Source: Planctomycetota bacterium
GTDB taxonomy: Bacteria; Planctomycetota; UBA1135
Direction of reading: 5' to 3'
NCBI GenBank assembly: GCA_004295085.1
Contig: SHNF01000006.1
Span: 93,818 to 157,817 of the forward strand
DNA length: 64,000 bases
In this document: piece by piece, positions 147 to 31,893 of the stretch
How positions within the stretch are numbered: the stretch's first letter is position 1
Layout of the letters: every line of letters begins with the position of its first letter
Notes under the pieces: generated by a model
What the model was told of the DNA's origin: nothing
What the model saw: the letters and a program-made list of their open reading frames with translations, nothing else
Databases searched by the model: none
Program-made: the position numbers and the translations under genes

Positions 147-1549
147 GCATGGGGCTGTCGCGCTGTCTGGTCCTGCTGTGCGCCGCGCTGGTCTTCGGCT
201 CCGCGCCGGCGCCGGCCCAGGAGGAGAAGCCGAAGGCGGCGCCGGAGAAGGCCGCCCAGGAGGAGCCCAAGGAGCCCGGCAAGGACGAGAAGGCTCCGGA
301 GAAGCCCGAGGAGAGCCCGTACCTGGCCGTGCTGGGCGGCGACGTGTACACGGTCAGCGACGAGGTGATCCCGGGCGGCACCGTCCTGATCAAGAAGGAC
401 CGCATCCTCAAGGTCGGCCGCGATGTGCGCCTGCCCGAGGGCGCGCGCACCCTGGACGCCAGCGGCATGCGCGTCTATCCCGGCCTGGTCGCGGTCAACG
501 CCAACGGCCTCATCGCCGGCGGCAACAAGGCCAGGGACTCCTTCGATCCGTTCACGCTCAACGTGGACCTGGGCCTGGCCGGCGGCCTCACCACGGCGCA
601 GGCGGGCAACGCCGCCGGCAAGCTCACGCGCGGCACGCTGGACGGCCACCTGCTGTCCCCGAGCGTCTGGATCAGCCTGACCTACTCGTCCACGGCGCCG
701 GCCACGCGGCGCAAGCTGCGCGAGGACCTGGACAAGGCGCGCGAGCTGCTGCGCCTCCAGCGCGACCACGAGACCGCCAAGTCGCTGGGCGAGACCGAGG
801 CCAAGCCGCCGTCGGAGGAAGGCGTCAACAAGGACTACGTCAAGCTGCTCAAGGGCGAGGCCATGGCGCGTTTCAACGCCGACAGCCTGGGGGCGCTGCT
901 GGCGGTGTGCGAGCTGCTGGAGGAGTACCCGATGCGGGCGGTGGTGTTCGGCGGGCAGGAGGCCTGGGCCTGCGCGCCGCGGCTGGGCCGCGCCGGAGCG
1001 CGCCTGGTGATCACGCCGCGCGACAAGGCCTGGGCCGACGAGCGCCTGAACCGGCCCAGCGGCTGGACCATCGAGAACGCGCGCCTCCTGCACGAGGCCG
1101 GGGTCGAGTTCGCGATCCTGCCGCAGGAGCAGTTCATCAGCACCGGCGGCATCACGGGCCGCGACCTGCTGACCCTGCCGCTGGAGGCGGCCTTCGCCAT
1201 CCGCGGCGGCCTGCCCCAGGCGGCGGCGCTGCGCGCCATCACCCTGGACGCCGCCAAGTGCCTGGGTCTGGAGGACCGCGTCGGCTCGATCGAGCCGGGC
1301 AAGGACGCCGACCTCATCATCACCGACGGCGACCTGTTCGACTACCGGTCCTTCGTGCAGTGGGCCGTGGTGAACGGGCGCGTGGCCTACGACAAGCAGA
1401 AGGCGCCATACTTCGCCCACATCCGGCCGCGGGCCGAGCCGCCCACGCCGGAGCAGCTCCTGGAGGAGATCCAGCGCGCCGCCGAGGCGCAGAAGCAGGC
1501 GCAGGAGCCGGCGCCGGAACCGCCGGCGCCGGACGAGCCGCCGTTCTGA
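143..1549 (+). CDS. Secreted amidohydrolase-fold protein (usual HxH metal site degenerate)
   Basis: Signal peptide MSMGLSRCLVLLCAALVFGSAPAPA followed by a Pro/Glu/Lys-rich linker. C-terminal GSIEPGKDADLIITDGDLF...VNGRVAY is an amidohydrolase signature. After PGLV, where HxH is expected, the sequence reads AVNANG. Confidence 0.7.
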   Translation: MSMGLSRCLVLLCAALVFGSAPAPAQEEKPKAAPEKAAQEEPKEPGKDEKAPEKPEESPYLAVLGGDVYTVSDEVIPGGTVLIKKDRILKVGRDVRLPEGARTLDASGMRVYPGLVAVNANGLIAGGNKARDSFDPFTLNVDLGLAGGLTTAQAGNAAGKLTRGTLDGHLLSPSVWISLTYSSTAPATRRKLREDLDKARELLRLQRDHETAKSLGETEAKPPSEEGVNKDYVKLLKGEAMARFNADSLGALLAVCELLEEYPMRAVVFGGQEAWACAPRLGRAGARLVITPRDKAWADERLNRPSGWTIENARLLHEAGVEFAILPQEQFISTGGITGRDLLTLPLEAAFAIRGGLPQAAALRAITLDAAKCLGLEDRVGSIEPGKDADLIITDGDLFDYRSFVQWAVVNGRVAYDKQKAPYFAHIRPRAEPPTPEQLLEEIQRAAEAQKQAQEPAPEPPAPDEPPF

Positions 1550-1607
1550 GATGGCGGCGGGCCCAGGCTAGGCAAGCGCGGCAGCAGCGGCATAATCGCC
1601 GGCCGCG

Positions 1608-2132
1608 GTGCAGTGCGAGGGATGCGTTCCCTCCGTGTCCGTGGCCCCCTTGCCGAATCCCGTTCTGAGCGAAGGCCGGAGAGCGCCGGCGTTCCGTCTC
1701 GTTGCCCACGACGGAAAGGAAGTCCGCCTGACCGAGCTGCGCGGGCGCTGGGTGGTGCTGTTCTTCTACCCGCGCCTGCAGCGTGTCAGCAGCGGCGGCA
1801 CCGCGTGCCTGTTCCAGGCGCGCATGGCCGAGTTCCGCCGGCGCAGCACCGCCGTGATCGGCATCGGCGTGGACGAAGTGGACACGCAGCGCGCCTTCGC
1901 CCGGGCCAACCAGATCGCCTTTCCGCTGCTGGCGGACCGCAACGCGCGCGTGGCGCGCCGCTACGGCGCATGGCGCGAGAAGAGCAGCAACGGCCAGGCC
2001 TACGTCGGGATCGTGCGCTCCACCTTCCTCATCGATCCCTCCGGACGCATCGAGCGCATCTTCGACAACCAGCGCATGAAGGGCCACGCCGACAAGGTGC
2101 TGCGGGCGCTGCGACAGGCCTGCCCGCGCTGA
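1608..2132 (+). CDS. Bcp/PrxQ-like thioredoxin-fold protein lacking the peroxidatic cysteine
   Basis: APAFRLVAHDGKEVRLTELRGRWVVLFFYP...IGIGVDEVDTQRAFA...FPLLADRN...VRSTFLIDPSGRIERIF aligns along its length with Bcp. The PxxxTxxC motif reads PRLQRVSS. The start codon is uncertain (a GTG a few codons downstream is possible). Confidence 0.7.
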   Translation: MQCEGCVPSVSVAPLPNPVLSEGRRAPAFRLVAHDGKEVRLTELRGRWVVLFFYPRLQRVSSGGTACLFQARMAEFRRRSTAVIGIGVDEVDTQRAFARANQIAFPLLADRNARVARRYGAWREKSSNGQAYVGIVRSTFLIDPSGRIERIFDNQRMKGHADKVLRALRQACPR

Positions 2133-2138
2133 TCCTCC

Positions 2139-3176
2139 ATGGGCAAGGACCTCCGCGCGCTGGTGCAGAAGATCGGCGGCGGCGCCTCGGGCAGCCTGCG
2201 CCGCAACCTGTCGCGCGAGGAGGCGCGCGCCGCGTTCGAATCGCTGCTGTCCGGCGACGGCACCGACGCCCAGGTGGCGGCCTTCTTCGCCGCCTTGCGC
2301 GCCAAGGGCGCCACGGCCGACGAGCTGACCGGCAGCACCGAGGCCGCGCGCGCGCGCCTGAGCTTCCCGGCCCTGCCCGCGCCGGCCGTGGTGCTCGGCA
2401 CCAGCCGCATGGGCAAGTTCCACACGCCGCCGCTGGGCCTGGCCGCGGCGGCGGCGGCGGCCGCCTGCGGGACGCCGGTGCTGGTGCTGGCCGCGCCCAG
2501 CGCCCGCGGCGCCGGCATCACGCTCGGCGACCTGTGGGTCCACATGGTCGGCTCACCATGCTCGGATCCCGGCAGCGCCGAACGCCTGCTGCAGCAGCGC
2601 GGGCTGGCCTGCTGGGAGCCCACGCTCGCCGACCCCGGCTGGCCGCGCCTGCTGCGCATCGAGGAGGAGATCGGCCTGCGCAGCCTGCCCGACATCGTCA
2701 TCAAGCTGCTCGCTCCCCCCGGCTGCCGCCTGATGGTGGCCGCCATGGCCGGACCGGTGCTCGGCACCGCGGGCGAGGCCCTGACCTCCCTCGGCTGCCG
2801 GGAAGGCGTCATCGTGCAGGGGATCGAGGGCTCCACCGATCCCTCGGTGCGCGTGCACACGCGCGGGCTGCTGATCGAAGGCGGCTCCACGTACCCGCTG
2901 CGCGTGGTGCCGGCCGACTTCGCGCTGGAGTGCGACGCGGAGCCGAGCTACCCGCACGAGGACCGCCTGGAGGCGGCGGTGGGAGCCACGCTCCAGGCCT
3001 TGCTCGGCATGCCCGGCCCGGTCACCTACGCCACGCTCCTCAGCGCGGCGCTGATGCTGCGCCTGTCCGGCCGGGCGCGCGACCTGGCCGCGGCCGTCGC
3101 CCTGGCCAAGGACGCCCTGGAGTCGGGCGCGGCGCAGCGGGTGCTGGACGGCGTCCGTGCCGCCGCCAGGCAGTAG
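2139..3176 (+). CDS. Anthranilate phosphoribosyltransferase (TrpD)-fold paralog with degenerate catalytic motifs
   Basis: N-terminal glycosyltransferase-family-3 helical domain (LSREEARAAFESLLSGDGTDAQVAAFFAALRAKGATADELTG). Where GTGGDG and KHGNR are expected, the sequence reads GTSRMG and LAAPSA. Confidence 0.5.
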   Translation: MGKDLRALVQKIGGGASGSLRRNLSREEARAAFESLLSGDGTDAQVAAFFAALRAKGATADELTGSTEAARARLSFPALPAPAVVLGTSRMGKFHTPPLGLAAAAAAAACGTPVLVLAAPSARGAGITLGDLWVHMVGSPCSDPGSAERLLQQRGLACWEPTLADPGWPRLLRIEEEIGLRSLPDIVIKLLAPPGCRLMVAAMAGPVLGTAGEALTSLGCREGVIVQGIEGSTDPSVRVHTRGLLIEGGSTYPLRVVPADFALECDAEPSYPHEDRLEAAVGATLQALLGMPGPVTYATLLSAALMLRLSGRARDLAAAVALAKDALESGAAQRVLDGVRAAARQ

Positions 3177-3258
3177 CCGCTGGGTAACAAGAGCGTTCCG
3201 CAGGGGTATTTAGCTGTCGCGGCATGGGAGTTGCCCACATGGCGCTCCACGCCTCGCA

Positions 3259-4260
3259 ATGCGGTCCCTCCCCACCTCGCTCATGCTCCTCGCCGCGCTG
3301 GCGGCCTGCGGCGGGGAGGACGGGACCCAGAGGCCCGAGCTGGCGGTAGCCCCGCCCCTGACCGGGATCGGCGACGCTTACGCCGCAGCCGAAACGGTGA
3401 AGCTGGCGGCCCCGCATCCCGAGGATGCGACCGGCCTGCACAATCTCTTCCACTTGAGCGAGCACGTCATCTCCGGCAGCGAGCCGCACGGAGATCCCGC
3501 GTTCCGCCACCTCGCCGGCCTGGGCGTGCGCACGATCCTGTCCGTGGATGGCATGACCCCGGACGCCGAAACCGCGGCCCGTTACGGCATCCAGTACGTG
3601 CACGTCCCGATCCAGTACAAGACCATCTCGCGCGACGAGCTGCTGCGGATCACCAAGACCTTCCGCGAGATGCCTGGTCCGTTCTACGTGCACTGCTTCC
3701 ACGGCAAGCACCGCGGTCCCGCGGCCGCGGCCATCGGCCGCCTGGTCCTGGACGGCACGTCGCGCGAGCAGGCCATTGCCGAGATGCGGCAGTGGTGCGG
3801 CACGTCGGCGAAGTACGGCGGGCTGTACGGCGTTGTGGCCACCGCCGCGATCCCGACCGCGGAGGAGACCCAGGCATACGACTTCGACTTCGCCAGCGCC
3901 AAGCCGCTCACCGGCTTCGCCGCGGCCATGGTGCGGATCTCGCGCCCGTATGACTTCCTGGAAGCGGCGGCGAAGCGCGGCTGGAGCGGCGACGAGGAGC
4001 AGCCGGACCTGGAGCCGGCCAACGAGGCCCGGATCCTGGCCGAAATGTTCCGCCGCACCCAGGAGCTGGTGGACACCGAGATGCGGCCCGAGGACTTCCA
4101 GAAGTGGATGGACCAGTCCGTGACGGAAAGCGCCCGGCTGGCGGCTGCGCTGGCCAAGGTCAAGGCCGGAGAGGCCGCGGGCCAGGAGGAAGCCACGGCG
4201 GCCTTCGCCGCCTTGAAGCAGCGCTGCGACTCCTGCCACGCCGTGTACCGCAACGACTGA
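3259..4260 (+). CDS. Lipoprotein: Cys-based phosphatase-like domain fused to a class II (cytochrome c'-like) haem domain
   Basis: Lipobox LLAALAAC. C(X)5R P-loop HCFHGKHRG in a DSP/PTP-like context. The C-terminal roughly 130 aa are helical and end in CDSCHAVYRND*, a CxxCH a few residues from the C-terminus as in cytochrome c'/c-556. Confidence 0.6.
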   Translation: MRSLPTSLMLLAALAACGGEDGTQRPELAVAPPLTGIGDAYAAAETVKLAAPHPEDATGLHNLFHLSEHVISGSEPHGDPAFRHLAGLGVRTILSVDGMTPDAETAARYGIQYVHVPIQYKTISRDELLRITKTFREMPGPFYVHCFHGKHRGPAAAAIGRLVLDGTSREQAIAEMRQWCGTSAKYGGLYGVVATAAIPTAEETQAYDFDFASAKPLTGFAAAMVRISRPYDFLEAAAKRGWSGDEEQPDLEPANEARILAEMFRRTQELVDTEMRPEDFQKWMDQSVTESARLAAALAKVKAGEAAGQEEATAAFAALKQRCDSCHAVYRND

Positions 4261-4407
4261 CGCCGTAAGGCATTATTTGGTAGGATCTTAGGGTCGTGGC
4301 CCGAATGCCCTGGCCGGCCCGGCCGGATTCTGGCCTAGGGGGGCCACTTGCCGGACACCCCTTCCGTCCCTAGCGTTCCCGGTTCCCTAGGCGCCGACAA
4401 CCCCTGC

Positions 4408-7119
4408 ATGCAGCTCGTCATCGCCGAGAAGCCCAGCGTGGCCGAGGACCTGACCCGGGTCCTCCCGGGGCCTTTCCACAAGCGGGAGGGCTATTGGGAG
4501 GGGCCGGAGCACGTGATGAGCTACGCCCTCGGCCACCTCCTGGAGCTGGCCCAGCCGGAGGACTACGACCCCGGCCTCAAGCGCTGGTCCCTGGAGCAGC
4601 TGCCCATCCTCCCGGGCAGCTTCCGGCGCAAGGCCCGCAGCGGCCAGACCCGCCACCTCCAGCTCCTCAAGAAGCTGGCGCAGCGGCCCGAGGTGGAGTC
4701 GGTGGTGAACGCCTGCGACGCCGCCCGGGAGGGTGAGCTGATCTTCCGCGAGATCGAGGAGTTCCTGGGCGTGCGCAAGCCGGTCTACCGGCTGTGGCTG
4801 CAATCCATGACCCCGGCCGCGATCCGCGAGGCCTTCGCCCGCCTCAAGCCGTCCGCGGCCTACGACGGCCTGGCCGATGCCGCCTACTCGCGCTCCGAGG
4901 CCGACTGGCTGATCGGCATGAACGCCACGCGCGCCATCACGCGCCGCCTCAAGGGCCGCAAGGAGAAGGGCGTGTGGTCGGCCGGGCGCGTGCAGACGCC
5001 CACGCTGGCGCTGCTGGTGCACCGCGAGCTCAAGGTGCTGGCGCACGTGGCCGTGCCCTACTGGCGCCTGCGCGGCGACTTCCAGGCCGCCGGCCACTCC
5101 TACGCCGGCCTGTACAAGAGCTCGCGCAGCGGCCGGGACGCCGAGAAGATCTGGGACCGGCACCAGGCCGAGGCGATCCGCGCCGCCTGCCTGGGCCGGC
5201 CTGCCGAGGTGGTCGAGCAGATCAGCGAGAGCACGCGCCCGGCTCCCGCGCTGCACTCGCTGACCTCGCTGCAGAAGGAGGCGAACTCGCGCTACGGCCT
5301 CAGCGCCAGCCGCACCCTGGGCGCGGCCCAGCGCCTGTACGAGCAGCACAAGGCGCTCACGTACCCGCGCACGGACAGCAACGCCCTGCCGTCGGACTAC
5401 CGCCCGCACGTGCAGCAGGTACTGGCGGTCCTGTCGCAGACCCACCCCGGCGACCTGTTCTCCGACACGGGACGCGCCGCGGCCATCCCCGAGGCGGCGC
5501 GCCAGCTGCGCACGGACGGCCTGCGCAACGAGGCGCGCGTGTTCGACGACGCCCGGGTCAGCGACCACTTCGCCGTGATCCCCACGGGGGTCCTGCCTGC
5601 GAGCCCGCTGGGCGGCGACGACGCCAAGGTGTTCGAGCTGGTGCTGCGCCGCTTCCTGGCCGCCTTCCTCCCGCCCAGCGTGTGGCAGAAGGTGGCGCGC
5701 GAGACCCGCATCCGGCCCGCCGGCGACAGCGCCACCGAGCCCACGCTGCACGTCTTCTATACCGAGTCCGACCGCCTGGTGCAGCCCGGCTGGCAGCTCG
5801 TGGACCGCCGCCCCGCGGCCTCCGAGCTGCTGGGCGATCTCGGCGTGCCTCCGGGCACCCCCGCCGCCGGCAGCACCAGGGAGGTGAAGATGGAGGAGGA
5901 CCTCACCCGCCCTCCCGCGCGCTACACCGAGGCCGGGCTGCTCAAGGCCATGGAGGAGGCCGGCGACATCGACCTGGACCAGCACGAGGAGATCGAGGAC
6001 GAGGAGGCCGTGGCCGCGCTCAAGCTGAAGGGGCTGGGCACTCCGGCCACGCGCGCCGACATCATCGAGGGCCTGATCGAGAAGGGCTACGTGCTGCGCA
6101 CCGGCAAGTCGCTGCGCCCGACCGCCAAGGGCATCATCCTGATCGACTTCCTGGAGCGCATCCGCGCCGAGAACCTGGCCAAGGCCGAGCTCACGGCCGA
6201 GATGGAGTTCCACCTGCTCCAGGTGGAGCGCGGCCAGCGCGAGCGCGCGTCCTACATGGGCGAGATCGAGTCCAGCGTGCGCGAGCTGGTCGAGAAGCTG
6301 CGCAACTTCGAATACGACGAGCTGTTCCAGGACGAGCAGCCGCTGGGCCGCTGTCCCGTGGACGGCGCGCCCGTGCGCGAGGGCCTGCGCGGCTACTCCT
6401 GCAAGAAGGAAGGCCACAGCTGGACCTTGTGGAAGGAGTTCCGCGGCCGCTACATCAACCGCCCGGTGGCCGAGAAGCTGCTGGCCGAGCGCGACAGCGG
6501 CCCGCTGGAGGGCTTCGTCAACCTGCGCGGCCAGCCCTACTCCGGGCGTCTCAAGCTCAGCAACGGCGATGCTCCCGCGCTCGAGTTCGAGCCGGTCAAG
6601 GACCTCCGGCTCAGCGACGAGGACGGCGCCGCGCCCGAGCCCGAGCTGGTCTCCTTCCCCGTGGATCCGGCACCCCTGGGACCCTGCCCCAAGTGCGGCA
6701 AGGGCCAGGTCGTCGAGACCGCCACGCACTACCAGTGCCGCCAGGAGGACGGCAAGAGCTGCGGCCTCACCATCCCGCGCGCCGTGTGCAAGCGCGAACT
6801 CAAGCGCGCCGACGTCGCTCCCTACTTCGATCCCGCCACCGGCAGCACCGACTGGATCGAGGACTTCATCTCGCGCAAGGGCCGCCCTTTCACCGCCAAG
6901 CTCGTCCGCAAGCCGAACGGCCGCCACGGCTTCGAGTTCAAACCCAGAGAAGGCAAGCCCATGCGGGGGCGGCGCAAGGCGGCCGCAGCCGAGACTCCGC
7001 CCGAGACCGCAGCTGCGGCCCCGGCTGCAACCAGCGCCGAAGCACCCGCCAAGACGGCGCGCAAGCCGCGCGCGCGCAAGAAATCCGCCAAGCCGCCGTC
7101 GCCCCCGGCGGAGTCATGA
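4408..7119 (+). CDS. topB: DNA topoisomerase III
   Basis: MQLVIAEKPSVAEDL Toprim start, CDAAREGELIFREI, and active-site tyrosine context LTYPRTDSNAL. C-terminal Cys-cluster zinc-finger-like segments, a GRPFTAKLVRKPNGRHGFEF topoisomerase C-terminal repeat, and a Lys/Ala/Pro basic tail. The start was chosen at the ATG giving the canonical N-terminus (the track ORF starts at 4348). Confidence 0.9.
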   Translation: MQLVIAEKPSVAEDLTRVLPGPFHKREGYWEGPEHVMSYALGHLLELAQPEDYDPGLKRWSLEQLPILPGSFRRKARSGQTRHLQLLKKLAQRPEVESVVNACDAAREGELIFREIEEFLGVRKPVYRLWLQSMTPAAIREAFARLKPSAAYDGLADAAYSRSEADWLIGMNATRAITRRLKGRKEKGVWSAGRVQTPTLALLVHRELKVLAHVAVPYWRLRGDFQAAGHSYAGLYKSSRSGRDAEKIWDRHQAEAIRAACLGRPAEVVEQISESTRPAPALHSLTSLQKEANSRYGLSASRTLGAAQRLYEQHKALTYPRTDSNALPSDYRPHVQQVLAVLSQTHPGDLFSDTGRAAAIPEAARQLRTDGLRNEARVFDDARVSDHFAVIPTGVLPASPLGGDDAKVFELVLRRFLAAFLPPSVWQKVARETRIRPAGDSATEPTLHVFYTESDRLVQPGWQLVDRRPAASELLGDLGVPPGTPAAGSTREVKMEEDLTRPPARYTEAGLLKAMEEAGDIDLDQHEEIEDEEAVAALKLKGLGTPATRADIIEGLIEKGYVLRTGKSLRPTAKGIILIDFLERIRAENLAKAELTAEMEFHLLQVERGQRERASYMGEIESSVRELVEKLRNFEYDELFQDEQPLGRCPVDGAPVREGLRGYSCKKEGHSWTLWKEFRGRYINRPVAEKLLAERDSGPLEGFVNLRGQPYSGRLKLSNGDAPALEFEPVKDLRLSDEDGAAPEPELVSFPVDPAPLGPCPKCGKGQVVETATHYQCRQEDGKSCGLTIPRAVCKRELKRADVAPYFDPATGSTDWIEDFISRKGRPFTAKLVRKPNGRHGFEFKPREGKPMRGRRKAAAAETPPETAAAAPAATSAEAPAKTARKPRARKKSAKPPSPPAES

Positions 7120-7529
7120 GCCTCCTTCCGGGTGCGGAGGAGCTGGTGGCCGCCGCCCGGGCCGCCGCCGCCGGCGCCTACGCTCCCTACAGCGACTTCC
7201 CGGTCGGCGCGGCGGTGCGCTGCGAGGACGGCCGCATCTACACCGGCGCCAACGTCGAGAACGCGAGCTACGGGCTCGGCATCTGCGCCGAGCGCGTCGC
7301 GGTCGCCGGCGCCGCGGCGCAGGGTCGCCGGCGCGTCGAAGCGGTCGCCGTCTGGACCGGCAGCGACCCGCCCTCCGCCCCCTGCGGCGCCTGCCGCCAG
7401 TTCCTGCTGGAGTTCTGCCCGCGCCCCGAGGACGTCTCCGTGCACCTCGCCGGCCCCGCCACGGTGCGCAGCTTCCACCTCAGCGACCTCCTCCCGCACC
7501 CGTTCCGCTTCCAGCGCAGCAAAGAATGA
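7116..7529 (+). CDS. cdd: Cytidine deaminase
   Basis: YAPYSDFPVGAAV...GANVENASYGLGICAERVA...PCGACRQFL carries the CAE and PCxxC zinc motifs. Its ATG overlaps the topB stop (ATGA at 7116-7119). Confidence 0.85.
   Translation: MSLLPGAEELVAAARAAAAGAYAPYSDFPVGAAVRCEDGRIYTGANVENASYGLGICAERVAVAGAAAQGRRRVEAVAVWTGSDPPSAPCGACRQFLLEFCPRPEDVSVHLAGPATVRSFHLSDLLPHPFRFQRSKE
7449..7508 (+). repeat. Direct repeat copy 1 (authentic 3' end of cdd)
   Basis: A 60-nt core matches 9224-9283 at 54/60 positions by hand alignment. Confidence 0.8.
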
Positions 7530-7652
7530 AGCCGGCCCTGGAGGCCCGCCTCCCTACGAGGCGAGTGGCCGGGGAGACGCTGCGACCGCCGGCTCGACGG
7601 GTCACCAGCGAGCTGCGTGCAGTCTCCGCGCGGCTCTGCCATCCGTTCCCGC

Positions 7653-8327
7653 TCATTCCCGGCGGCGGTGGTAGAAGCGCTTCACCTTGTCCCGGTTGCC
7701 GCACACGCTCATGTCGCACCAGCGGCGCGAGCGGTTCCTGCTGCGGTCGAGGAACAGCCAGTCGCAGGCATCCGCGGCGCACACGCGCAGGCGCTCGAGG
7801 TCGGCCGCCGAGGTGAGGAGCTCGTAGGCGGATTGCATGACGGGAAAGTGCAGGCGTTCGAGGTCGCCCGGCTCGCAGGCGAAGCTCGAGCCAAAGCGCG
7901 GCCGCCCGGGGACGAGCTCCAGATGCGCGAAGGCGCGCGCCAGGGACCGGTTCAAGGAGTGCAGCGGACCGGCAGGCGCGGGGCGGCCCCGGGCCAGGGC
8001 GGAGAAGAGCGCGAACAGCACCTCGCGCAACGACTGCATCTGCTGCAGTGCACGCTGGGCGGCGGCTGGCCGGCGCGCCGCGGCGCGGCGCAGGGCCCGG
8101 GCCTCGCCGGGGGAGAGCAGGCGCGACTGCTCGGCCCAGTCCACCAGGTCGGCATAGCTCTCGAGGTTGTCCCGGCGGGTGGCCAGCGGCCGCTCGTCGA
8201 GGGTGTTGACCAGGTCCAGGCAGGCCGCACCACCCGTGAGCTCGAACAGGAAGCCCTGCGGCGTGCGGCGGCCGCCCCGCTTGACCGGGGATTCGCCCGT
8301 CGGCATGCGCGCGGCGCCGGAGGCCAT
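7653..8327 (-). CDS. ABATE-domain / CGNR zinc-finger putative regulator
   Basis: N-terminal FLFELTGGAACLDLVNT (ABATE-like). The C-terminus has C-x2-C...RRWCDMSVCGNRDKVKRFY (CGNR zinc finger). The start was taken at the ATG at 8327; the TTG at 8348 or the ATG at 8306 are alternatives. Confidence 0.8.
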   Translation of the reverse strand: MASGAARMPTGESPVKRGGRRTPQGFLFELTGGAACLDLVNTLDERPLATRRDNLESYADLVDWAEQSRLLSPGEARALRRAAARRPAAAQRALQQMQSLREVLFALFSALARGRPAPAGPLHSLNRSLARAFAHLELVPGRPRFGSSFACEPGDLERLHFPVMQSAYELLTSAADLERLRVCAADACDWLFLDRSRNRSRRWCDMSVCGNRDKVKRFYHRRRE

Positions 8328-8348
8328 GCCGGCACCATAAACCAGCAA

Positions 8349-8511
8349 TGCAGACTTGACAAGTTAGTTTCAGTTGGTAACCTACTAATTCGATGACACT
8401 GGTTAGTATCCCGACGCTCCCGGTGACCCGGTCCAGGCGTGGCCGTGGCCCTGGAGGGCGCTCTTCGGTGGCGGTCCTGGTGGCTGACCGGTCCAGAAGG
8501 AGCATGACGCG
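8349..8511. promoter_or_regulatory. AT-rich divergent promoter/operator region between the CGNR regulator and the ABM gene
   Basis: A locally AT-rich stretch in a roughly 70% GC genome. It holds a TTGACA hexamer at 8356-8361 and a repeated GTTAGT motif (8363-8368, 8402-8407) with ACTAAT at 8385-8390 in the opposite sense. Confidence 0.35.
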
Positions 8512-8856
8512 ATGATCGCGAGAATCTGGCGTGGGATGGTCCCGTTGGAGAAGGCGGAGGGGTACGGCAAGTACCTTGCAGACTCCGATCGCGGCGTGCG
8601 GGACTACCGGAGAGTGCCCGGCAATCGCGGGGCCTGGCTCCTGCGGCGCGTGCAGGGCGACCGGGTGCATTTCCTGCTCATCTCGCTGTGGGACTCACGC
8701 GCGGCGATCGAGGGGTACGCCGGTCCGGACATCGAGCAGGCCCGCTACTTCGCATACGATCGGGAGTGTCTCCTGGAACCCGAGCCCCAAGTTGCGCACT
8801 ACGAGGTCCTGGTTGCACCCGCAGCCGGCGAAAGTTGCCGCCCGCTGCCCGCATGA
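8512..8856 (+). CDS. ABM-domain (antibiotic biosynthesis monooxygenase-like) protein
   Basis: A small ferredoxin-like-fold pattern: MIARIWRG...GYGKYL...HFLLISLWDSRAAIEGYAG. AGGAG lies 8 nt upstream of the ATG. Confidence 0.6.
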   Translation: MIARIWRGMVPLEKAEGYGKYLADSDRGVRDYRRVPGNRGAWLLRRVQGDRVHFLLISLWDSRAAIEGYAGPDIEQARYFAYDRECLLEPEPQVAHYEVLVAPAAGESCRPLPA

Positions 8857-9224
8857 ACCGCTCGGCACTCACCAGCATCGCCCCCGATGTCTTCCGGAAG
8901 CGCCTCCTCGTCGAGGGTTTCTTCGAGACTGAGATCACGGCCGAGACCCTGCGGGCGTACTTTCGGGACATCACGCAGGCACTCGGGCTCCGGACATACG
9001 GCGAGCCGATCATCCACCGGACCAGCGGCCAGGGCAAGCAGGCCAACGAAGGGTTCGACGCGTTCGTCCCGCTGATCGATTCGGGGATCTACATCGCGGT
9101 CTGGTTGCAGCCCCGCTTCCTGTCCACGATCCTCTACACATGTGGCCCGTTCGACGAGGAGCGCGCGGTGGCCCTGGTCCGGGACTGCTTCCGCCTGTCC
9201 CGGCACGAGGCGGCGATCTTCTAG
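8853..9224 (+). CDS. S-adenosylmethionine decarboxylase (SpeH/AdoMetDC)-related protein, divergent
   Basis: GFDAFVPLIDSGIYIAVWLQPRFLSTILYTCG aligns with the SpeH core [32 protein letters not shown]. Its ATG overlaps the upstream stop (ATGA at 8853-8856). Confidence 0.6.
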   Translation: MNRSALTSIAPDVFRKRLLVEGFFETEITAETLRAYFRDITQALGLRTYGEPIIHRTSGQGKQANEGFDAFVPLIDSGIYIAVWLQPRFLSTILYTCGPFDEERAVALVRDCFRLSRHEAAIF

Positions 9225-9283
9225 CCGGCCCCGCCGCGGCGCGCAGCTTCCGCCACAGCGACCTGCTCCCGCACCCCTTCCGC
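9224..9283 (+). pseudogene. Decayed duplicate of the cdd 3' end (direct repeat copy 2)
   Basis: Translates in frame to AGPAAARSFRHSDLLPHPFR, against the cdd C-terminus AGPATVRSFHLSDLLPHPFR. No upstream cdd body is present. It lies 43 nt before the tRNA. Confidence 0.75.
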
Positions 9284-9326
9284 AGCGGGCGCAAGTCCCG
9301 GAACCGCTCTATCCTATGGAGCGGAA

Positions 9327-9403
9327 GTCCCCGTAGCTCAGAAGGATAGAGCGGCGGTTTCCTAAACCGCAGGTCGCGCGTTCGACTCGCGCCGGGGACA
9401 CCA
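9327..9403 (+). tRNA. tRNA-Arg (anticodon CCT)
   Basis: Cloverleaf folded by hand. Acceptor stem GTCCCCG/CGGGGAC, D arm GCTC/GAGC, anticodon stem GCGGT/ACCGC with loop TTCCTAA, variable loop AGGTC, T arm GCGCG/CGCGC with loop TTCGACT. Discriminator A and an encoded CCA follow. Confidence 0.9.
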
Positions 9404-9429
9404 CCCAGGATCCAGTCCAGGAGAAGAAG

Positions 9430-9699
9430 ATGAAATCCATGAATCTCCACCCGTTCTCGTTGTTCGCCGGCGGCAGCCTGGCCGTGATCGCGCTCCTGGC
9501 CCTGGGCCAGGCCTCCGCGGCGCCCGCTCAGGGCGGGGCAGCGCCCGCTCCGAAGTGGGAGTACAAGGTCGTGGAAGACCTCACCGAGGGACAGGCCGCG
9601 AAGCTCGCGGCGGACGGCTGGGAATACGCCGGCTACCTGGGCAACAGCGTCAAGGGAGTCAGCAACGACGAGACGCTGTGGAAGCGTCCGGGCAAATGA
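9430..9699 (+). CDS. Small secreted DUF4177-like protein
   Basis: A signal peptide followed by a KWEYKVVEDL...DGWEYAGYL pattern. GGAGAAG lies upstream of the ATG. Confidence 0.55.
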   Translation: MKSMNLHPFSLFAGGSLAVIALLALGQASAAPAQGGAAPAPKWEYKVVEDLTEGQAAKLAADGWEYAGYLGNSVKGVSNDETLWKRPGK

Positions 9700-9721
9700 C
9701 TTGACCCGGCGTCCCGGCGGA

Positions 9722-10297
9722 TCACCGCGCCTTCCTGGACCGCTGCTTGCGCGCGCGCGCAGGCAGCGGAGCCTTGGCCGCCCTGGCGGAGCGGGTTGCG
9801 GCCCGCTTCGGCGCGCCCGCTCCCGGTCTGGCGGCGCCTGCGCGCGCGGCGGGGACGGCCGCCTGATAGCTGCGAATGTACTCTGCGGGGGTCACGCCGC
9901 GGATGGCATCGGCGATCACGTCGAGGGCGAGGTCCTCCAGCTTCTTGAAGCGGATGCAGCACTTGCCCATGTCGAGCTTCTTTCCGGTCTTGGCCCACTT
10001 CTGCCGGAAACTCCTCTCCTGCTGGCCCTCGCCGTAGCTCGGCATGAGATAGAGGGACAGGTAGTTCTTCTGCGAGGCCAGCGCGGCGAAGGGCAGCGGC
10101 TGGCGCGGGTCGCAGTGGTAGCCGGCGGGAAAGACGCGGTGCGGCACGTAGTAGCCGATCATGCCGTACTGCATGCCCTCCTCGAAGTCGTCGTCGAGGT
10201 TGTCGAGGATGAGCTTGCGCACGGCTTCGATGATGGCGCGCCGGTCGGCGGGCAGCTCGGACAGGTACTGCTGGACGCTGGTTGCCTTGCTTTGCAT
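9722..10297 (-). CDS. DUF1801 (YdhG-like) domain protein with basic C-terminal tail
   Basis: MQSKATSVQQYLSELPADRRAIIEAVRKLI...MQYGMIGYYV...GKCCIRFKKLEDL is typical of DUF1801. The tail is rich in Ala/Arg/Lys. Confidence 0.6.
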   Translation of the reverse strand: MQSKATSVQQYLSELPADRRAIIEAVRKLILDNLDDDFEEGMQYGMIGYYVPHRVFPAGYHCDPRQPLPFAALASQKNYLSLYLMPSYGEGQQERSFRQKWAKTGKKLDMGKCCIRFKKLEDLALDVIADAIRGVTPAEYIRSYQAAVPAARAGAARPGAGAPKRAATRSARAAKAPLPARARKQRSRKAR

Positions 10298-10348
10298 GGC
10301 GGGGCTTCCGGAGATTCTCCGGATTCTCGCTCGTCCTCGACCTCACCG

Positions 10349-11329
10349 CTACCTCCAATCGTCGATGAGATAGACGCCGGCCCGGTTGTAGCCCGGCTCG
10401 TCCGGCCTTTGCATCGCTATCCCCTGGAGATCGGTGCGGAAGCCGCGGCCGAGCATCCGGAGATAGGCCTCGTGGCGGGCCAGATTGACGCCGGCGACCA
10501 GGCGGCGCAGGCCTCCTTCGGCGGCCATCGATCCGCAGGCGTCGAGCAGGTGGTCGAAGTCCGCCGCCGCGGCCGGGCCCGGCCGCACCACTCCGAACTT
10601 GACGTAGCAGATCCCGCTCCCCGCTTCCGAGCCCGGCCCGCAATGACACACGGCCAGGCCCGCCAGTCGCCCAGCGTCTGCCCGGAGGAGGAGAGTGTCG
10701 CCAAGTCCCTGCTGCGCGACGGCGCGGATCTCCCGGCTGACGTCCAGCCCCGCGCTGGCCGCGCCGGTCACCTCACGGCAGGCGCGGAGCATCGGCTCAC
10801 GTTCGCTCTCCGGCAGATCCGAGAATCGGGTCCAGCGCGGCGTCGGTGCCGGCTGGCCGACCGCCGTGGTCATGACCGCGGTGAGGAAGCGGGGCCAGAA
10901 CCCGAACTTCTGGTACAGGCCGACGTGCTTCTGGCTGTGGGCGAAGGTGAAGAGGCCGGCGTGCTTCGTTCCCCAACGCTCGAAGCAGCCGAGAACGGGT
11001 TCCATCAGGCGCTTGCCCACTCCGCGGTCCCAGAAGTCGGGCCGGATCGAGAGCGGGCCGAAGAAACCCGTGCTGCCCCAGCTGGTGGCGAAGTTCGAGC
11101 CGACGAGCTCGCCGTCGATCTCGGCGCCAAAGGCGGCGGACGGGTCGGCCAGCCAGCGGGTCCGCACGTAGTCCGCGTCACCCATGAAGCTCAGCGGCTC
11201 CGGGAGGCCGAGGAATGTGCCGAATGCAAATCGCAGGATGCGGTCGGCGGCCGGCAGGTCACGTTCCTCCAGGGGGCGGACGGTGACTTCCGGCTGCGCG
11301 GCCTCCGCCGTTCGATTGCGCATTCCCAT
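10349..11329 (-). CDS. GNAT-family N-acetyltransferase with C-terminal extension
   Basis: VRPLEERDLPAADRI...PDFWDRGVGKRLME is the acetyl-CoA-binding motif A (R/Q-x-x-G-x-G/A). This is followed by a second domain of about 150 aa. Confidence 0.7.
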   Translation of the reverse strand: MGMRNRTAEAAQPEVTVRPLEERDLPAADRILRFAFGTFLGLPEPLSFMGDADYVRTRWLADPSAAFGAEIDGELVGSNFATSWGSTGFFGPLSIRPDFWDRGVGKRLMEPVLGCFERWGTKHAGLFTFAHSQKHVGLYQKFGFWPRFLTAVMTTAVGQPAPTPRWTRFSDLPESEREPMLRACREVTGAASAGLDVSREIRAVAQQGLGDTLLLRADAGRLAGLAVCHCGPGSEAGSGICYVKFGVVRPGPAAAADFDHLLDACGSMAAEGGLRRLVAGVNLARHEAYLRMLGRGFRTDLQGIAMQRPDEPGYNRAGVYLIDDWR

Positions 11330-11350
11330 CGCTGGTCCTCCGTAGCGGTA

Positions 11351-11980
11351 CTATCGGCGCCGGGGTCGGCCGCCGGTTTTGCCTCGAGATCGCTCGAGCC
11401 CTGCCCGCACCAGCGCGCGGATCGCCCAGCTCTTTACGGCCCGGGCGTCGCGCGGGCTCAGTTGCAGGACGTCGGTGGCGACCACCATCGACTCGGTGCC
11501 GAAGAAGTGCGCCAGGGCGGCCCGCAGCAGCTCGTAGGTCGAATCGTCGAAGCGGTGCCTGGCGGGCTGCAGCGCCGCCTCGATCAGCGCGCCGCGACGA
11601 TTCTGCCGCACCGGTATGCCATCCCGCTGGCGCGCCGGGAGCTCGAGCGATCGGGCCAGCATCATCCGGAGCTGGGGCTCGTTGGCCTGGACCATCGCGT
11701 GGAGCGCTTTCTCGGCCCGCTCGATCCGCTCCTCCGGATCGGTCGAGGGATCCTGGGCGAACAGCTCCTCCGGGGTCGGCACCGCTCCGTCGAGGGGCGC
11801 TTCGGCCATCAGGACCTCGCGGCTCGGGAAGTAGCGATAGGCCGTGGCCCGCGAGATCCGGGCCTCCTCGGCGACCTCGGCCACGGTCGGACACCGACCC
11901 GCCTTCATGAGCCGGGCCGCGGCGGACAGGAGATCCTTGCGGGTGCGATGCCGCTGATTGGCGCGCCAGGCTTCGCTCAT
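11351..11980 (-). CDS. TetR-family transcriptional regulator
   Basis: HTH segment RTRKDLLSAAARLMKAGRCPTVAEVAEEARISRATAYRYFPSRE. The start was chosen at MSEAWRANQ (the track ORF continues upstream in an implausible Pro/Ser/Arg-rich frame). Confidence 0.85.
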   Translation of the reverse strand: MSEAWRANQRHRTRKDLLSAAARLMKAGRCPTVAEVAEEARISRATAYRYFPSREVLMAEAPLDGAVPTPEELFAQDPSTDPEERIERAEKALHAMVQANEPQLRMMLARSLELPARQRDGIPVRQNRRGALIEAALQPARHRFDDSTYELLRAALAHFFGTESMVVATDVLQLSPRDARAVKSWAIRALVRAGLERSRGKTGGRPRRR

Positions 11981-11984
11981 GTCG

Positions 11985-12407
11985 TCACGCGGGAGGCAGC
12001 TGCCGGATGATCGCGGCGAGATCGACCCACACGCTCTCGCGCCCGATCTGGCCGTCGGGAGTGAACTGGAGCACGTGCAGCAGGCGGAACTCGAGAGGGC
12101 GGCCCTTGCCCTCGAGGCCGAAGGGCCGCCCCGGGGCGTTGCCCTTCCAGACGGACTCGTCCACCAGGAAGTCCTCGCCGTACAGCCGCTCGGTGCACAC
12201 GACCTTCCCGTCCGCCAGGTCGGCGAACATGGCCTGGTAGAAGCTGCGGGCGTTCTCGCGACCGCGGGTGGGGCCGCCCGGCCAGCCGACGATGTCATGC
12301 CTCGCCTCCGCGGACAGGGTCCGCAGCACCCCCTCCACGTCGTCCTTGGCCTCGTAGGCGAAGTGCTCGTCGATCGCGCGATCCATCTGCTCCCGGGAGA
12401 TTGCCAT
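11985..12407 (-). CDS. SnoaL-like / NTF2-fold protein (ester cyclase-like)
   Basis: MAISREQMDRAIDEHFAYEAKDDVEGVLRTL...FLVDESVWKG...VWVDLAAIIRQL. There is a 4-nt gap to tetR downstream. The upstream part of the track ORF is AT-rich and probably non-coding. Confidence 0.6.
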   Translation of the reverse strand: MAISREQMDRAIDEHFAYEAKDDVEGVLRTLSAEARHDIVGWPGGPTRGRENARSFYQAMFADLADGKVVCTERLYGEDFLVDESVWKGNAPGRPFGLEGKGRPLEFRLLHVLQFTPDGQIGRESVWVDLAAIIRQLPPA

Positions 12408-29053: not shown

Positions 29054-30454
29054 ATGCTGCAAACCATGCTGCACCTGTTCCTGTGCCTCCCGGGCCTCAC
29101 GCTCGCGGCCGCGCAGGGTCCTGACGTGACCCTGACCGCCTTCCCCAAGGACCTGCAGCTCTACCCGCGTGATGCGGCTGGTCACGGCACGGCGCAGGTG
29201 GCGGGCAGCGTGGACACCCCCGGCTACTCCAGCGTGGAGCTGCGCGTGTACCGCGAAGGCGTCCGGTGGGATCTCCAGAGCCAGCCCTTGAGCTACGCCG
29301 GCGGCTCGGCGCCGTTCGCGTTCTCGGTCCCGGTTCCGGCCGAGCTCGCGGAATACGACTTCGAGCTGCACGCGGTCGCCGCCACCGCCTCTGCGCTGCT
29401 GGCCGCGGCGCAGGACGTGGTGGCCGGCGACGTGTTCCTGATCCAGGGCCAGAGCAACGCCGTGGCCGGTGACGGCTACGGCGAGAACCTGGCCAACGCC
29501 GCGCAGCGCCCGTGGATCCGCAGCTACGGCACGGCCAGCATCTGGGACTTCAAGGTGGTCAACGACGACGCCTGGGGCCGCGCCGACGGGGAGGACGGCA
29601 ATGTCCACTGCACCATCGGCCAGTGGGGCCTGCGCATGGCGCAGTTGCTGGTGGACCAGACCCAGGTGCCGGTCTGCGTGCTGAACGGCGCGGTCGGCGC
29701 CACCCCGATCAAGTACCACCTGCGCAACGACGCCGACCCGATGAACCCGGCCAGCAACTACGGGCGCCTCCTGTTCCGGGCCACGCGCTGCGGCGTGGCC
29801 GCCGCCGTGAAGGCCATCTTCTGGTACCAGGGCGAGTCCAACGGTGATGACTACCTGCCCTACGCCGCGAACTTCGCCGAGCTCTACGCCGACTGGCTCT
29901 CGGACTATCCCGCGGCGGAGAAGATCTACGTGTTCCAGGTCCACAACGGCTGCGGCGCGCCCAACCAGCGCCTGCGCGAGCTGCAGCGCCGCTTCGAGGA
30001 CCTGTACCCGCTCGTGGACGTGCTGAGCACCACCGCCGCGCCCGACCACGACGGCTGCCATTACCGCTACTCCGGCTACCGCGAGCTCGGCAACCGCGCG
30101 GCGCGGCTGGTGGCGCGCGATTTCTACGCCTCGCCGCTCACGCAGGACATCGACGCGCCCGACCTCGAGCGCGCCTACTACAGCAACACCCAGCGCGACG
30201 AGATCACGCTCGTGTTCCGCGATCCGGATGACACGCTCCGCTTCGAAGCGGGCGCGCAGGCGCGCTTCACGGTCGAGCCCGCGGGCGACGTCCGCAGCGG
30301 CACGGTGACCGGCCCGAACACGATCCGGCTGCGCCTCGACGGCCCCGCCACTGCCACCTCGATCTCCTACGACTACCCGGCGGGCAGCGCGGCCGGCATC
30401 GTCAACGCGCGCGGCGTGGGCGCGCTCACCTTCTTCCGCGCGCGCATTCAGTAG
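29054..30454 (+). CDS. SASA/SGNH-type carbohydrate esterase (sialate O-acetylesterase-like), paralog 1
   Basis: Signal peptide, then DVFLIQGQSNAVAG (GQSN nucleophile block), FWYQGESNGD, and ...DHDGCHYRYSGY.... Confidence 0.65.
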   Translation: MLQTMLHLFLCLPGLTLAAAQGPDVTLTAFPKDLQLYPRDAAGHGTAQVAGSVDTPGYSSVELRVYREGVRWDLQSQPLSYAGGSAPFAFSVPVPAELAEYDFELHAVAATASALLAAAQDVVAGDVFLIQGQSNAVAGDGYGENLANAAQRPWIRSYGTASIWDFKVVNDDAWGRADGEDGNVHCTIGQWGLRMAQLLVDQTQVPVCVLNGAVGATPIKYHLRNDADPMNPASNYGRLLFRATRCGVAAAVKAIFWYQGESNGDDYLPYAANFAELYADWLSDYPAAEKIYVFQVHNGCGAPNQRLRELQRRFEDLYPLVDVLSTTAAPDHDGCHYRYSGYRELGNRAARLVARDFYASPLTQDIDAPDLERAYYSNTQRDEITLVFRDPDDTLRFEAGAQARFTVEPAGDVRSGTVTGPNTIRLRLDGPATATSISYDYPAGSAAGIVNARGVGALTFFRARIQ

Positions 30455-30492
30455 GGTCGCAGTCGATGGGTCAGATGTAACCTGGGGAACGA

Positions 30493-31848
30493 ATGCTCAC
30501 CCTCCTCCTGCTGGCCCAGTCCGCGTCCCTGACTTCCTTTCCCAAGGACCTGCAGCTCTACCCGCGCGACGCCGCCGGCTTCGGCGCCGTCGAGGTCGCG
30601 GGCAGCGTGGACAGCCCCGGCTACCTCAGCGCCGACCTCTACGTCTACCGCGACGATGTCCTGTGGCACTCCGAGAGCCAGCCGCTGACCTACAGCGGCG
30701 GCTCGGCGCCCTTCGCGATGACGGTCAGCATCCCGGCCGAGCTGGCCGAGTACGACTTCGCGCTCTATGCCTTCGACGGCGCTTCCTCCGACCCCCTGGA
30801 CGCCGCGCAGGACGTCGTTGCCGGCGACGTCTACCTGGTCCAGGGCCAGAGCAACGCGGTGGCCGCCGACTGGGCGGCCGAGGATCTCGGCAACTCCTCG
30901 CAGCGGGAATGGATCCGCAGCTACGGCACCGCCAGCACCACGGGCTCCAGCGTGATCAACGACACCGACTGGGGGCTTGCGGAAGGCGAGCGCAGCAACC
31001 AGCACTGCACGATCGGGCAGTGGGGCCTGCGCATGGCACAACTGCTGGTGGACAAGGGCCAGATCCCGGTCTGCGTGCTGAACGGCGCCGTGAGCGGGAC
31101 CCCGATCACCTACCACTTGCGCAACGACGCCGACCCCATGAACGTGAACACCAACTACGGACGGCTGCTCTACCGCGCCGCCCAGGCCGGCGTTCAAGGC
31201 GCTGCGAAGGCGATCCTCTGGTACCAGGGCGAATCGGACGGAGACCGTTACGAGGCGTATTCGATCAACTTCGCCGATCTGTACGCGGACTGGCTCTCCG
31301 ACTATTCCGCCGTCGAGAAGGTCTACGTGTTCCAGATCCACAACGGCTGTGGCGCCCCCAGCCAGCGCCTGCGCGAGCTGCAGCGCCGGTTCGATGACCT
31401 CTACCCGCGGGTGGACGTGCTCAGCACCACCGAGGCGCCCGAGCACGACGGCTGCCATTACCGCTACAGCGGCTACCGGGAGCTCGGAGACCGCGCGGCG
31501 CTCGTCCTGGGGCGCGACTTCTACGCCTCTCCCGTCACGAAGAACATCGACGCACCGAACATCGACTACGCCTACTACAGCACCCCGCAGCAAGATGAGA
31601 TCACGCTGGTCTTCCGCGATCCGGACGACACCCTGATCTGGGAGCCGGGGGCGGAGGCGCGCTTTACCCTGAGACCGGTCGGCAGTGTCCTCGGCGGGGT
31701 AGTCTCCGGCAACAGCATTGTGCTCGATCTGGGCGGTCCTGCTACGGCCACCTCCATCTCCTACGACTACCCGGCGGGTGAGGCGGCCGGGATCGTCAAC
31801 GGCCGCGGCATCGGCGCGCTGACGTTCTACCGCGCGCGGATTCAGTAA
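30493..31848 (+). CDS. SASA/SGNH-type carbohydrate esterase, paralog 2 (tandem duplicate)
   Basis: Collinear with paralog 1 along its whole length, with the same GQSN and QGES blocks and an identical C-terminal RARIQ*. By eye roughly two-thirds or more of residues are identical. Confidence 0.65.
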   Translation: MLTLLLLAQSASLTSFPKDLQLYPRDAAGFGAVEVAGSVDSPGYLSADLYVYRDDVLWHSESQPLTYSGGSAPFAMTVSIPAELAEYDFALYAFDGASSDPLDAAQDVVAGDVYLVQGQSNAVAADWAAEDLGNSSQREWIRSYGTASTTGSSVINDTDWGLAEGERSNQHCTIGQWGLRMAQLLVDKGQIPVCVLNGAVSGTPITYHLRNDADPMNVNTNYGRLLYRAAQAGVQGAAKAILWYQGESDGDRYEAYSINFADLYADWLSDYSAVEKVYVFQIHNGCGAPSQRLRELQRRFDDLYPRVDVLSTTEAPEHDGCHYRYSGYRELGDRAALVLGRDFYASPVTKNIDAPNIDYAYYSTPQQDEITLVFRDPDDTLIWEPGAEARFTLRPVGSVLGGVVSGNSIVLDLGGPATATSISYDYPAGEAAGIVNGRGIGALTFYRARIQ

Positions 31849-31893
31849 GGGTCGGACTTGGCCAGGCGGTCGCCGCCTGGCCAAGTCCGACCC
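31849..31893. terminator. Bidirectional hairpin terminator between convergent genes
   Basis: A perfect 21-bp stem, GGGTCGGACTTGGCCAGGCGG / CCGCCTGGCCAAGTCCGACCC, around a 3-nt centre, followed by TATT. It begins 1 nt after the esterase stop and abuts the GH13 stop. Confidence 0.7.

Follow-up and report, generated by a model that had tools for sequence, protein, structure and literature searches.

How can a block of three genes come to lie between a housekeeping gene and a tRNA gene without disrupting either of them? The question is raised by a stretch of 64,000 nucleotides from a Planctomycetota bacterium (GenBank assembly GCA_004295085.1, contig SHNF01000006.1, positions 93,818 to 157,817 of the forward strand; hereafter the window, numbered from its first letter). 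In the window the 3' end of the cytidine deaminase gene cdd is present twice. The first copy is part of cdd; the second is located close to a gene for tRNA-Arg(CCT). A first-pass annotation, made from the sequence alone, had interpreted this arrangement as the scar of an integration. This interpretation is plausible, yet unproven. The structural history can be stated with much greater assurance: very probably the 3' end of cdd received a block of about 1.70 kb, with 63-73 bp of the gene now standing on both sides of it.

The duplication is real. A repeat search of the window returned a direct repeat of 73 nt at a spacing of 1775 nt with 62 of 73 positions identical (85%; copies 1 and 2 in Table 1). 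The best local alignment of the two cdd 3'-end copies is 63 nt long and has 56 identities (89%). Up to 7508 the similarity is clear; the last ten positions, to 7518, match less well (6/10). The hand count of 54 matches in 60 positions (7449-7508 versus 9224-9283) in the first-pass annotation was exact and is borne out by these alignments. When the same 60-mer is compared with both strands of the entire window, which has 70% G+C, background matches average 18.2 +/- 3.8 positions and the second-best site reaches 36/60. With the empirical, composition-specific match rate the binomial probability of at least 54 matches is approximately 8e-17 after multiplication by 128,000 positions. The longest exact blocks shared by the copies are 12, 11, and 11 nt, and seven mismatches are scattered over the 63-nt core. 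In the frame of cdd copy 2 translates to LAGPAAARSFRHSDLLPHPFR, i.e., it is still translatable as had been claimed. The annotated position of copy 2 also holds: it abuts or overlaps the stop codon of the AdoMetDC-like gene (TAG, 9222-9224), the tRNA-Arg(CCT) begins 43 nt after 9283, and exactly three genes separate the copies. Beyond the repeat the similarity ends. The sequence past 7518 resembles nothing past 9293, nor can the tails of the two copies be aligned (p = 0.88). A decayed tRNA copy behind copy 1 was considered and rejected: the local alignment of 7519-7700 with 9294-9460 does not reach the mean score of shuffled sequences (p = 0.85).

Which of the two copies is the native one? The answer comes from relatives. 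In a collection of 5.8 billion proteins only two lineages possess a cdd more than 65% identical to that of the window, represented by contig L007 and by contigs L008 and L009. In L007 cdd is 76% identical; its stop codon is followed by 16 nt and the tRNA-Arg(CCT), and there is no cassette. Upstream the synteny with the window comprises AhpC - glycosyltransferase - ... - topA - cdd. In a blastn alignment L007 is collinear with window positions 661-7507 and then resumes at 9314-9402; this resumed part, leader plus tRNA, is 89% identical to its L007 counterpart. In L008/L009 cdd is 70% identical and is followed by 24 nt and a full-length, yet degenerate tRNA-Arg. Here, blastn aligns L008 123-500 with window 7140-7517 and L008 467-607 continuously with window 9259-9399. 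The cdd of L007 aligns to copy 1 up to 7507, that of L008 up to 7517. The cdd tail and spacer of L008 can be aligned with the tail behind copy 2 (p = 0.008 versus shuffles). Thus, the end of the L008 cdd matches both copies, and only copy 2 runs on into spacer and tRNA, which identifies copy 2 as native.

Judged by these alignments the native order was topA-cdd, a short spacer and tRNA-Arg(CCT). The ancestral adjacency of cdd and tRNA-Arg, which the first-pass annotation had supposed, is directly visible in both lineages, and L007 provides the uninterrupted junction with collinear flanks, i.e., the empty site. The claim that the cassette integrated into the 3' end of cdd likewise agrees with the comparison: the cassette breaks the cdd/tRNA junction, and the native end, displaced by it, survives as the downstream copy. 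Read from the sequence, the native cdd once ran on through copy 2 and its tail to the CTATGG box and the tRNA; copy 2 is now a dead 3' fragment. Wider searches added no closer relatives. Searching genome contigs with cdd yielded only matches of 58% identity or less from unrelated phyla, a metagenome scan for the pattern of the cdd-3'/tRNA junction gave 0 matches, and a scan for CTATGG plus the tRNA 5' end returned 26 loci, none with homologues of cdd, topA or the cassette.

The same comparison dates the event. The copies match each other at 56 of 63 positions and the orthologous stretches of L007 and L008 at only 38-42 of 63. Because they are closer to each other than to their orthologues, the duplication is younger than the split from L007 and L008. 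Polarising the seven copy differences with L007 and L008 was tried as a means to identify the incoming copy; each copy has about three derived changes, and the incoming one could not be told from this. The cassette and both copies are 100% identical in all same-species contigs (14-16) from at least six sequencing runs. With a longest uninterrupted identity of 12 nt, loss by homologous recombination would now be unlikely.

Table 1. Features of the cdd/tRNA-Arg locus (window coordinates).
Feature	Position	Strand	Description
topA (DNA topoisomerase I)	4348-7119	+	Pfam Topoisom_bac 1e-94, Toprim_Crpt; collinear with L007
cdd	7116-7529	+	tetrameric-type cytidine deaminase, 137 aa, intact as judged by profile matches
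Copy 1	7446-7518	+	in frame within cdd, codons 111-134; clear core 7446-7508
Inserted block	~7519-9220		~1702 nt, placed by synteny; no counterpart in L007/L008
ABATE + CGNR regulator	7653-8348	-	Pfam ABATE 3e-21 (76.7 bits), zf-CGNR 6e-20 (71.3 bits), both above threshold
Divergent intergenic region	8349-8511		AT-richer; sigma-70-like promoter match for the regulator
ABM-like (HmoA-like) protein	8512-8856	+	114 aa; 4-nt overlap with next gene
AdoMetDC-fold protein	8853-9224	+	123 aa, full length, native C-terminus ...HEAAIF and native stop
Copy 2	9221-9293	+	non-coding relic of the native cdd 3' end, ancestral position
Native tail/spacer	9294-9326	+	CTATGG box 9314-9319, hairpin 9304-9324
tRNA-Arg(CCT)	9327-9403	+	ARAGORN, CCT anticodon; Rfam RF00005 65.7 bits (threshold 29)

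What did the insertion do to cdd? By its profile matches the gene stays intact: it scores 135.4 bits against TIGR01354 (cut-off 113.65; profile positions 2-123 of 126), 137 bits against NF004064, and 4.6e-17 against Pfam dCMP_cyt_deam_1. At the other end, the topA stop overlaps the cdd start by 4 nt (ATGA), and topA is the synteny anchor common to the window, L007 and L008. The block entered cdd about 10 nt ahead of the stop codon; the left junction is uncertain within ~7509-7525. It brought along the last three codons and the stop of cdd (SKE*), a 123-nt spacer and the three genes. Of the annotated claim that the element supplied a replacement 3' end only a small part remains: the supplied piece is about three codons plus the stop, whereas the homology of copy 1 to orthologous cdd reaches ~7517.

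The first gene of the block encodes a putative transcription regulator with ABATE and CGNR zinc-finger domains, for which gene callers place the start at 8327 (224 aa). Members of this family have been proposed to be stress-induced transcription regulators (PMC2954205). A promoter scan of the divergent intergenic region found the match TTGTCA-17-TATGGT on the minus strand. The plus strand of this region has TTGACA-17-TAACCT, and it holds the motifs GTTAGT, ACTAAT, and GTTAGT; that these are the operator of the CGNR regulator is a guess. The ABM-like protein is below the Pfam ABM threshold (8e-4, 19.9 bits versus 23.1). It has more than 1000 homologues with identities of up to 86%, some of which carry a precomputed PF03992 match and are named HmoA-like in their source.

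The third gene had been labelled AdoMetDC-like. Its product is just under the Pfam AdoMet_dc threshold for class-1 S-adenosylmethionine decarboxylases (24.6 versus 25 bits) and a sequence search gave no match in the PDB. The structure model has a predicted local distance difference test score (pLDDT) of 85.5, and Foldseek matches it to the AdoMetDC proenzyme of T. maritima (E 4e-7, template-modelling score 0.76, root-mean-square deviation 1.7 A, 16% identity). At the level of the modelled fold the label is right. The family is 68-81% identical across Acidobacteriota, Gammaproteobacteria, and Myxococcota. In the family alignment (proteins P0121-P0240) every member has 123 aa, the C-terminus ...H(E/Q)AAIF and an invariant D76-S77-G78. 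As all members share length and C-terminus, the window carries a complete gene, and its native stop marks the end of the insert. Genes of this family often adjoin those of ABM-like proteins, CGNR regulators or class-I methyltransferases.

Does the block travel? Contig L015 has genes of all three families side by side, at an unrelated locus and in another order; its CGNR gene is 40% identical to that of the window. In L013 the ABM-like/AdoMetDC-fold pair is found with the same 4-nt overlap. The recurrence of trio and pair indicates that the block is a transferable functional module. The suggestion of the first-pass annotation to look for the cassette at other loci or on mobile elements was thus borne out in its first half: the other occurrences are beside neither cdd-like DNA nor, in the loci that were read, integrases, and none is on an IMG/VR viral contig. 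Compositional foreignness was considered and rejected. The G+C content at third codon positions (GC3) of the cassette genes is 0.80-0.92, within the range of the host (0.88 +/- 0.06), and the overall G+C content is only slightly lower over 8350-9250.

On the far side the native spacer leads into the tRNA gene. Probably 9294-9326 contains the -10 region of the tRNA promoter plus the leader. The CTATGG box, probably the -10 region itself, is kept in L007 (8425-8431), in L008 (520-526), and at the 26 metagenome tRNA loci (L101-L126). On many unrelated metagenome contigs it is located 3-15 nt ahead of the mature 5' end of tRNA genes which start with GTCCCCGTAGCTCAG, often with a TTGC motif about 17-18 nt further upstream. 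In L007 the cdd stop TAA lies directly upstream of the box. The leader in the window contains a 9-bp hairpin, CCGCTCTAT-CCT-ATGGAGCGG, and the hairpin region is an inverted copy, at 16 of 19 positions, of the D-arm region of the tRNA (9336-9354). Leader plus tRNA folds at z = -3.0, and the predicted alternative structure would compete with the cloverleaf; L008 has a weaker form of this.

Downstream of the tRNA the locus is variable too. The synteny with L007 (8516-10463) stops at the tRNA and 9404-12400 of the window differs: it contains small accessory genes (an 89-aa secreted protein, DUF1801, GNAT, TetR, SnoaL), and L007 has a sulfatase. No attachment (att) repeat was found for this side in the window. 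An island integrated at the 3' end of the tRNA was considered and discarded, the 3' half of the tRNA being unrepeated anywhere in the 64 kb. The assembly of ERR6015535 (L003, L143) breaks at the tRNA, between the AdoMetDC-fold gene and the gene for the 89-aa protein. Probably the tRNA is shared with other organisms of the metagenome; the break is not read as a polymorphism. Further away, at 29125-31850, the window has other direct repeats of 300 nt (75%), 122 nt (83%), and 43 nt (88%), about 1.4 kb apart, which probably mark tandem paralogous genes.

By which mechanism did the block enter? We favour, tentatively, a Campbell-type integration at an att site in the 3' end of cdd by a recombinase which is lost or acts in trans. 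A small circular DNA with an attachment segment resembling the cdd 3' end would have entered by a single crossover, catalysed by a tyrosine recombinase that later decayed or is encoded elsewhere; the block would then be an islet without recombinase, similar to a cis-mobilizable element (CIME). The upstream copy is in frame, so that cdd is complete and ends in the insert-derived SKE and a new stop; the downstream copy is a dead fragment that still runs on into the native tail of cdd, the CTATGG box, and the tRNA. A crossover core of 7-8 bp could sit in any of the three longest exact blocks. After immobilisation the att copies may have drifted to 89% identity; at no more than 12 nt of uninterrupted identity too little would remain for an easy RecA-mediated loss, and the cassette would be fixed.

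Recombinase-mediated integration is the first choice on account of the anatomy, which is that of e14 in icd and of CIMEs (see below), a repeat length typical of att sites and far beyond transposon target duplications, and an island in the L008/L009 lineage. Past the degenerate tRNA-Arg of L008/L009 a tyrosine-recombinase gene (Phage_integrase 8e-19) is located on the minus strand. On the same strand the island has another tRNA-Arg(CCT), this one intact, an HTH_17 gene, and metal-efflux genes for a P-type ATPase and a resistance-nodulation-division (RND) pump. The stretch in question is L008 534-2346, with a counterpart in L009. Its native tRNA-Arg(CCT) is degenerate from the anticodon loop onwards, whereas the part before it is intact; ARAGORN does not call this gene. 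It looks as if the element damaged its tRNA target and carried its own replacement copy. An integrase island at the same cdd/tRNA-Arg locus indicates that this site has been used by integrative elements in the clade.

Several findings weigh against this route. Neither the insert nor about 6 kb on either side of it contains a recombinase or excisionase, and a tblastn search of the 64-kb window with the L008 integrase was negative; other recombinase types were not screened for beyond +/-6 kb. The repeats have no perfect core longer than 12 nt. Among the 14-16 same-species contigs no presence/absence polymorphism, cassette-free allele or excision product was seen. The closest homologues of the cassette genes often stand alone among ordinary small accessory genes, with no integrases in the loci that were read, and no cdd-like DNA flanks cassette homologues in other contigs. 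No viral contig of IMG/VR contains a member of the AdoMetDC-like family. A viral attP was looked for there as well; eight matches to a 20-nt pattern are due to chance and come without cdd homology. The GC3 of the cassette is that of the host. The insert is free of debris and ends exactly at the stop of the AdoMetDC-fold gene, which is awkward for the decay of a larger element; indeed, such an end is odd under every model. The L008 element joined at the tRNA, not inside cdd. A literature search on cdd as an integration site found nothing relevant. Thus, from the annotated claim of an element scar with a lost recombinase the anatomy stands, together with the island at the locus in L008; the recombinase has left no trace in the regions searched.

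The main rival, possible though rather unlikely, dispenses with a dedicated recombinase altogether. It posits a duplicative illegitimate insertion, either by a staggered double-strand break (nicks about 73 nt apart) with fill-in and ligation to a linear foreign fragment, or by a template switch near 7518, copying of about 1.7 kb of foreign DNA and re-entry 73 nt upstream. On both routes the two halves of the target-site duplication would have started out identical and diverged later. That the copies are mutually closest is what one expects from a single template, and no lost recombinase is needed; none is present in the regions searched. The compact, debris-free insert of host-like composition and the occurrence of cassette homologues outside of mobile-element contexts fit as well. 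Only about three cdd codons were replaced, which any insert could do by chance, and the right junction has a possible microhomology of only 1-3 nt (CT.G). Yet known bacterial transposition yields much shorter duplications than one of about 70 bp, and for illegitimate insertion in bacteria such lengths are rarely documented. A fragment ending exactly at a stop codon is left unexplained, and the location beside a tRNA which hosts an integrase island in a relative would be a coincidence. Further, the functional copy has acquired about three derived non-synonymous changes, as many as the neutral copy, which is slightly odd if both were identical at the start; the poor conservation of the duplicated cdd stretch tempers this oddness.

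It is distinctly improbable that the duplication goes back to DNA of a sibling strain or species, with copy 1 as the donor allele and copy 2 as that of the recipient. This could have happened by homologous Campbell integration of a circle with a cdd 3' segment, or by homology-facilitated illegitimate recombination, with cdd as the anchor and the second end joined at a point upstream of where the anchor stops. The 11% divergence of the copies would then be an allelic difference from the outset, no recombinase is needed, and the tail FQR of copy 1 indeed resembles FER of L008 (8/9 nt). However, the donor must already have had the cassette beside cdd, so that the question is only moved back, and no such donor arrangement is present among the matches of the 5.8-billion-protein search or their contexts. 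Moreover, 63-73 nt is short for RecA-dependent integration.

Only a slight probability is given to a further reading, in which the cdd 3' end would serve in this clade as a genuine att site for minimal, recombinase-less cassettes that are moved in trans by the integrases of adjacent, L008-like tRNA-Arg islands. If true, the locus would be a two-tier hotspot in which the end of a housekeeping gene and the neighbouring tRNA share one recombination machinery.

Could the cassette instead be ancestral and have been lost from L007 and L008 by precise deletion between the direct repeats? Recombination between the repeats would restore exactly the cdd-tRNA junction seen in these lineages, and only two relatives are available. 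We consider this very unlikely nevertheless. A duplication event is still required, and two independent precise losses in addition; the copies are far closer to each other than to the L007/L008 stretches, i.e., the duplication is younger than these splits; and the spacer and CTATGG box of L007/L008 align with the copy-2 side only. Lastly, chance similarity in GC-rich DNA, which inflates chance matches, or an artefact of metagenome assembly can practically be disregarded in view of 54/60 matches against a background maximum of 36/60 (corrected P ~1e-16), the identity of the structure in independent assemblies, and the lack of any shared k-mer longer than 12 that might have misled the assembler.

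Whichever mechanism applies, the locus is a clean, datable case of a regulator-plus-enzymes module that was added without disrupting either neighbour. The cdd gene keeps its working frame, and the DNA upstream of the tRNA is still its own. From the leftover cdd fragment the event can be dated: it came after the lineage had split from its nearest known relatives. If a recombinase was responsible, integrative elements would have a new protein-gene target in cdd, and this in a phylum in which they have been little studied. If not, the locus would be one of the rarely documented cases in bacteria where illegitimate insertion duplicated about 70 bp of its target. Neither outcome would be surprising; both would be incremental.

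How does the cdd insert compare with known systems? Known bacterial transposons generate target-site duplications of about 2-15 bp. The cdd insert shares with them the flanking direct duplication of target DNA. It differs by the length of the duplication, about 70 bp, by the lack of terminal inverted repeats at its ends, and by the absence of a transposase domain. In tRNA islands and actinomycete integrative elements the identity segments of the att sites range from tens to about 100 bp. Points in common are a tRNA locus, a typical repeat length, and the tyrosine-integrase island of L008/L009 at the same tRNA-Arg. The difference is that the repeat at cdd is coding sequence upstream of the tRNA and that no part of the tRNA is duplicated.

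A similar anatomy is known from the cryptic prophage e14 in icd of E. coli, where icdC is a non-coding C-terminal fragment with a few substitutions, a direct repeat at the far end of the insert (PMC13626634). In both cases a housekeeping protein gene took up the insert at its 3' end and is complete, and a dead fragment is found at the far end. Yet e14 has about 15 kb and its own integrase and still excises, whereas the cdd insert carries three accessory genes on 1.7 kb, lacks a recombinase, shows no excision, and replaced about three codons. The CIMEs, decayed ICE/IME remnants, have retained attL and attR while the genes for integration and transfer are absent (PMC5704250). This resembles the cdd insert, which is flanked by repeats and has no integration genes. 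The att sites of CIMEs, however, recognisably belong to a known family of integrative and conjugative or integrative and mobilizable elements (ICE/IME) and can be recombined by its integrase. For the cdd insert no cognate integrase or sister element is known, and its repeats are 89% identical with no perfect core longer than 12 nt. Set beside these systems, the cdd insertion scar is real and fairly ordinary, a fresh example of a known structure in a poorly sampled phylum.

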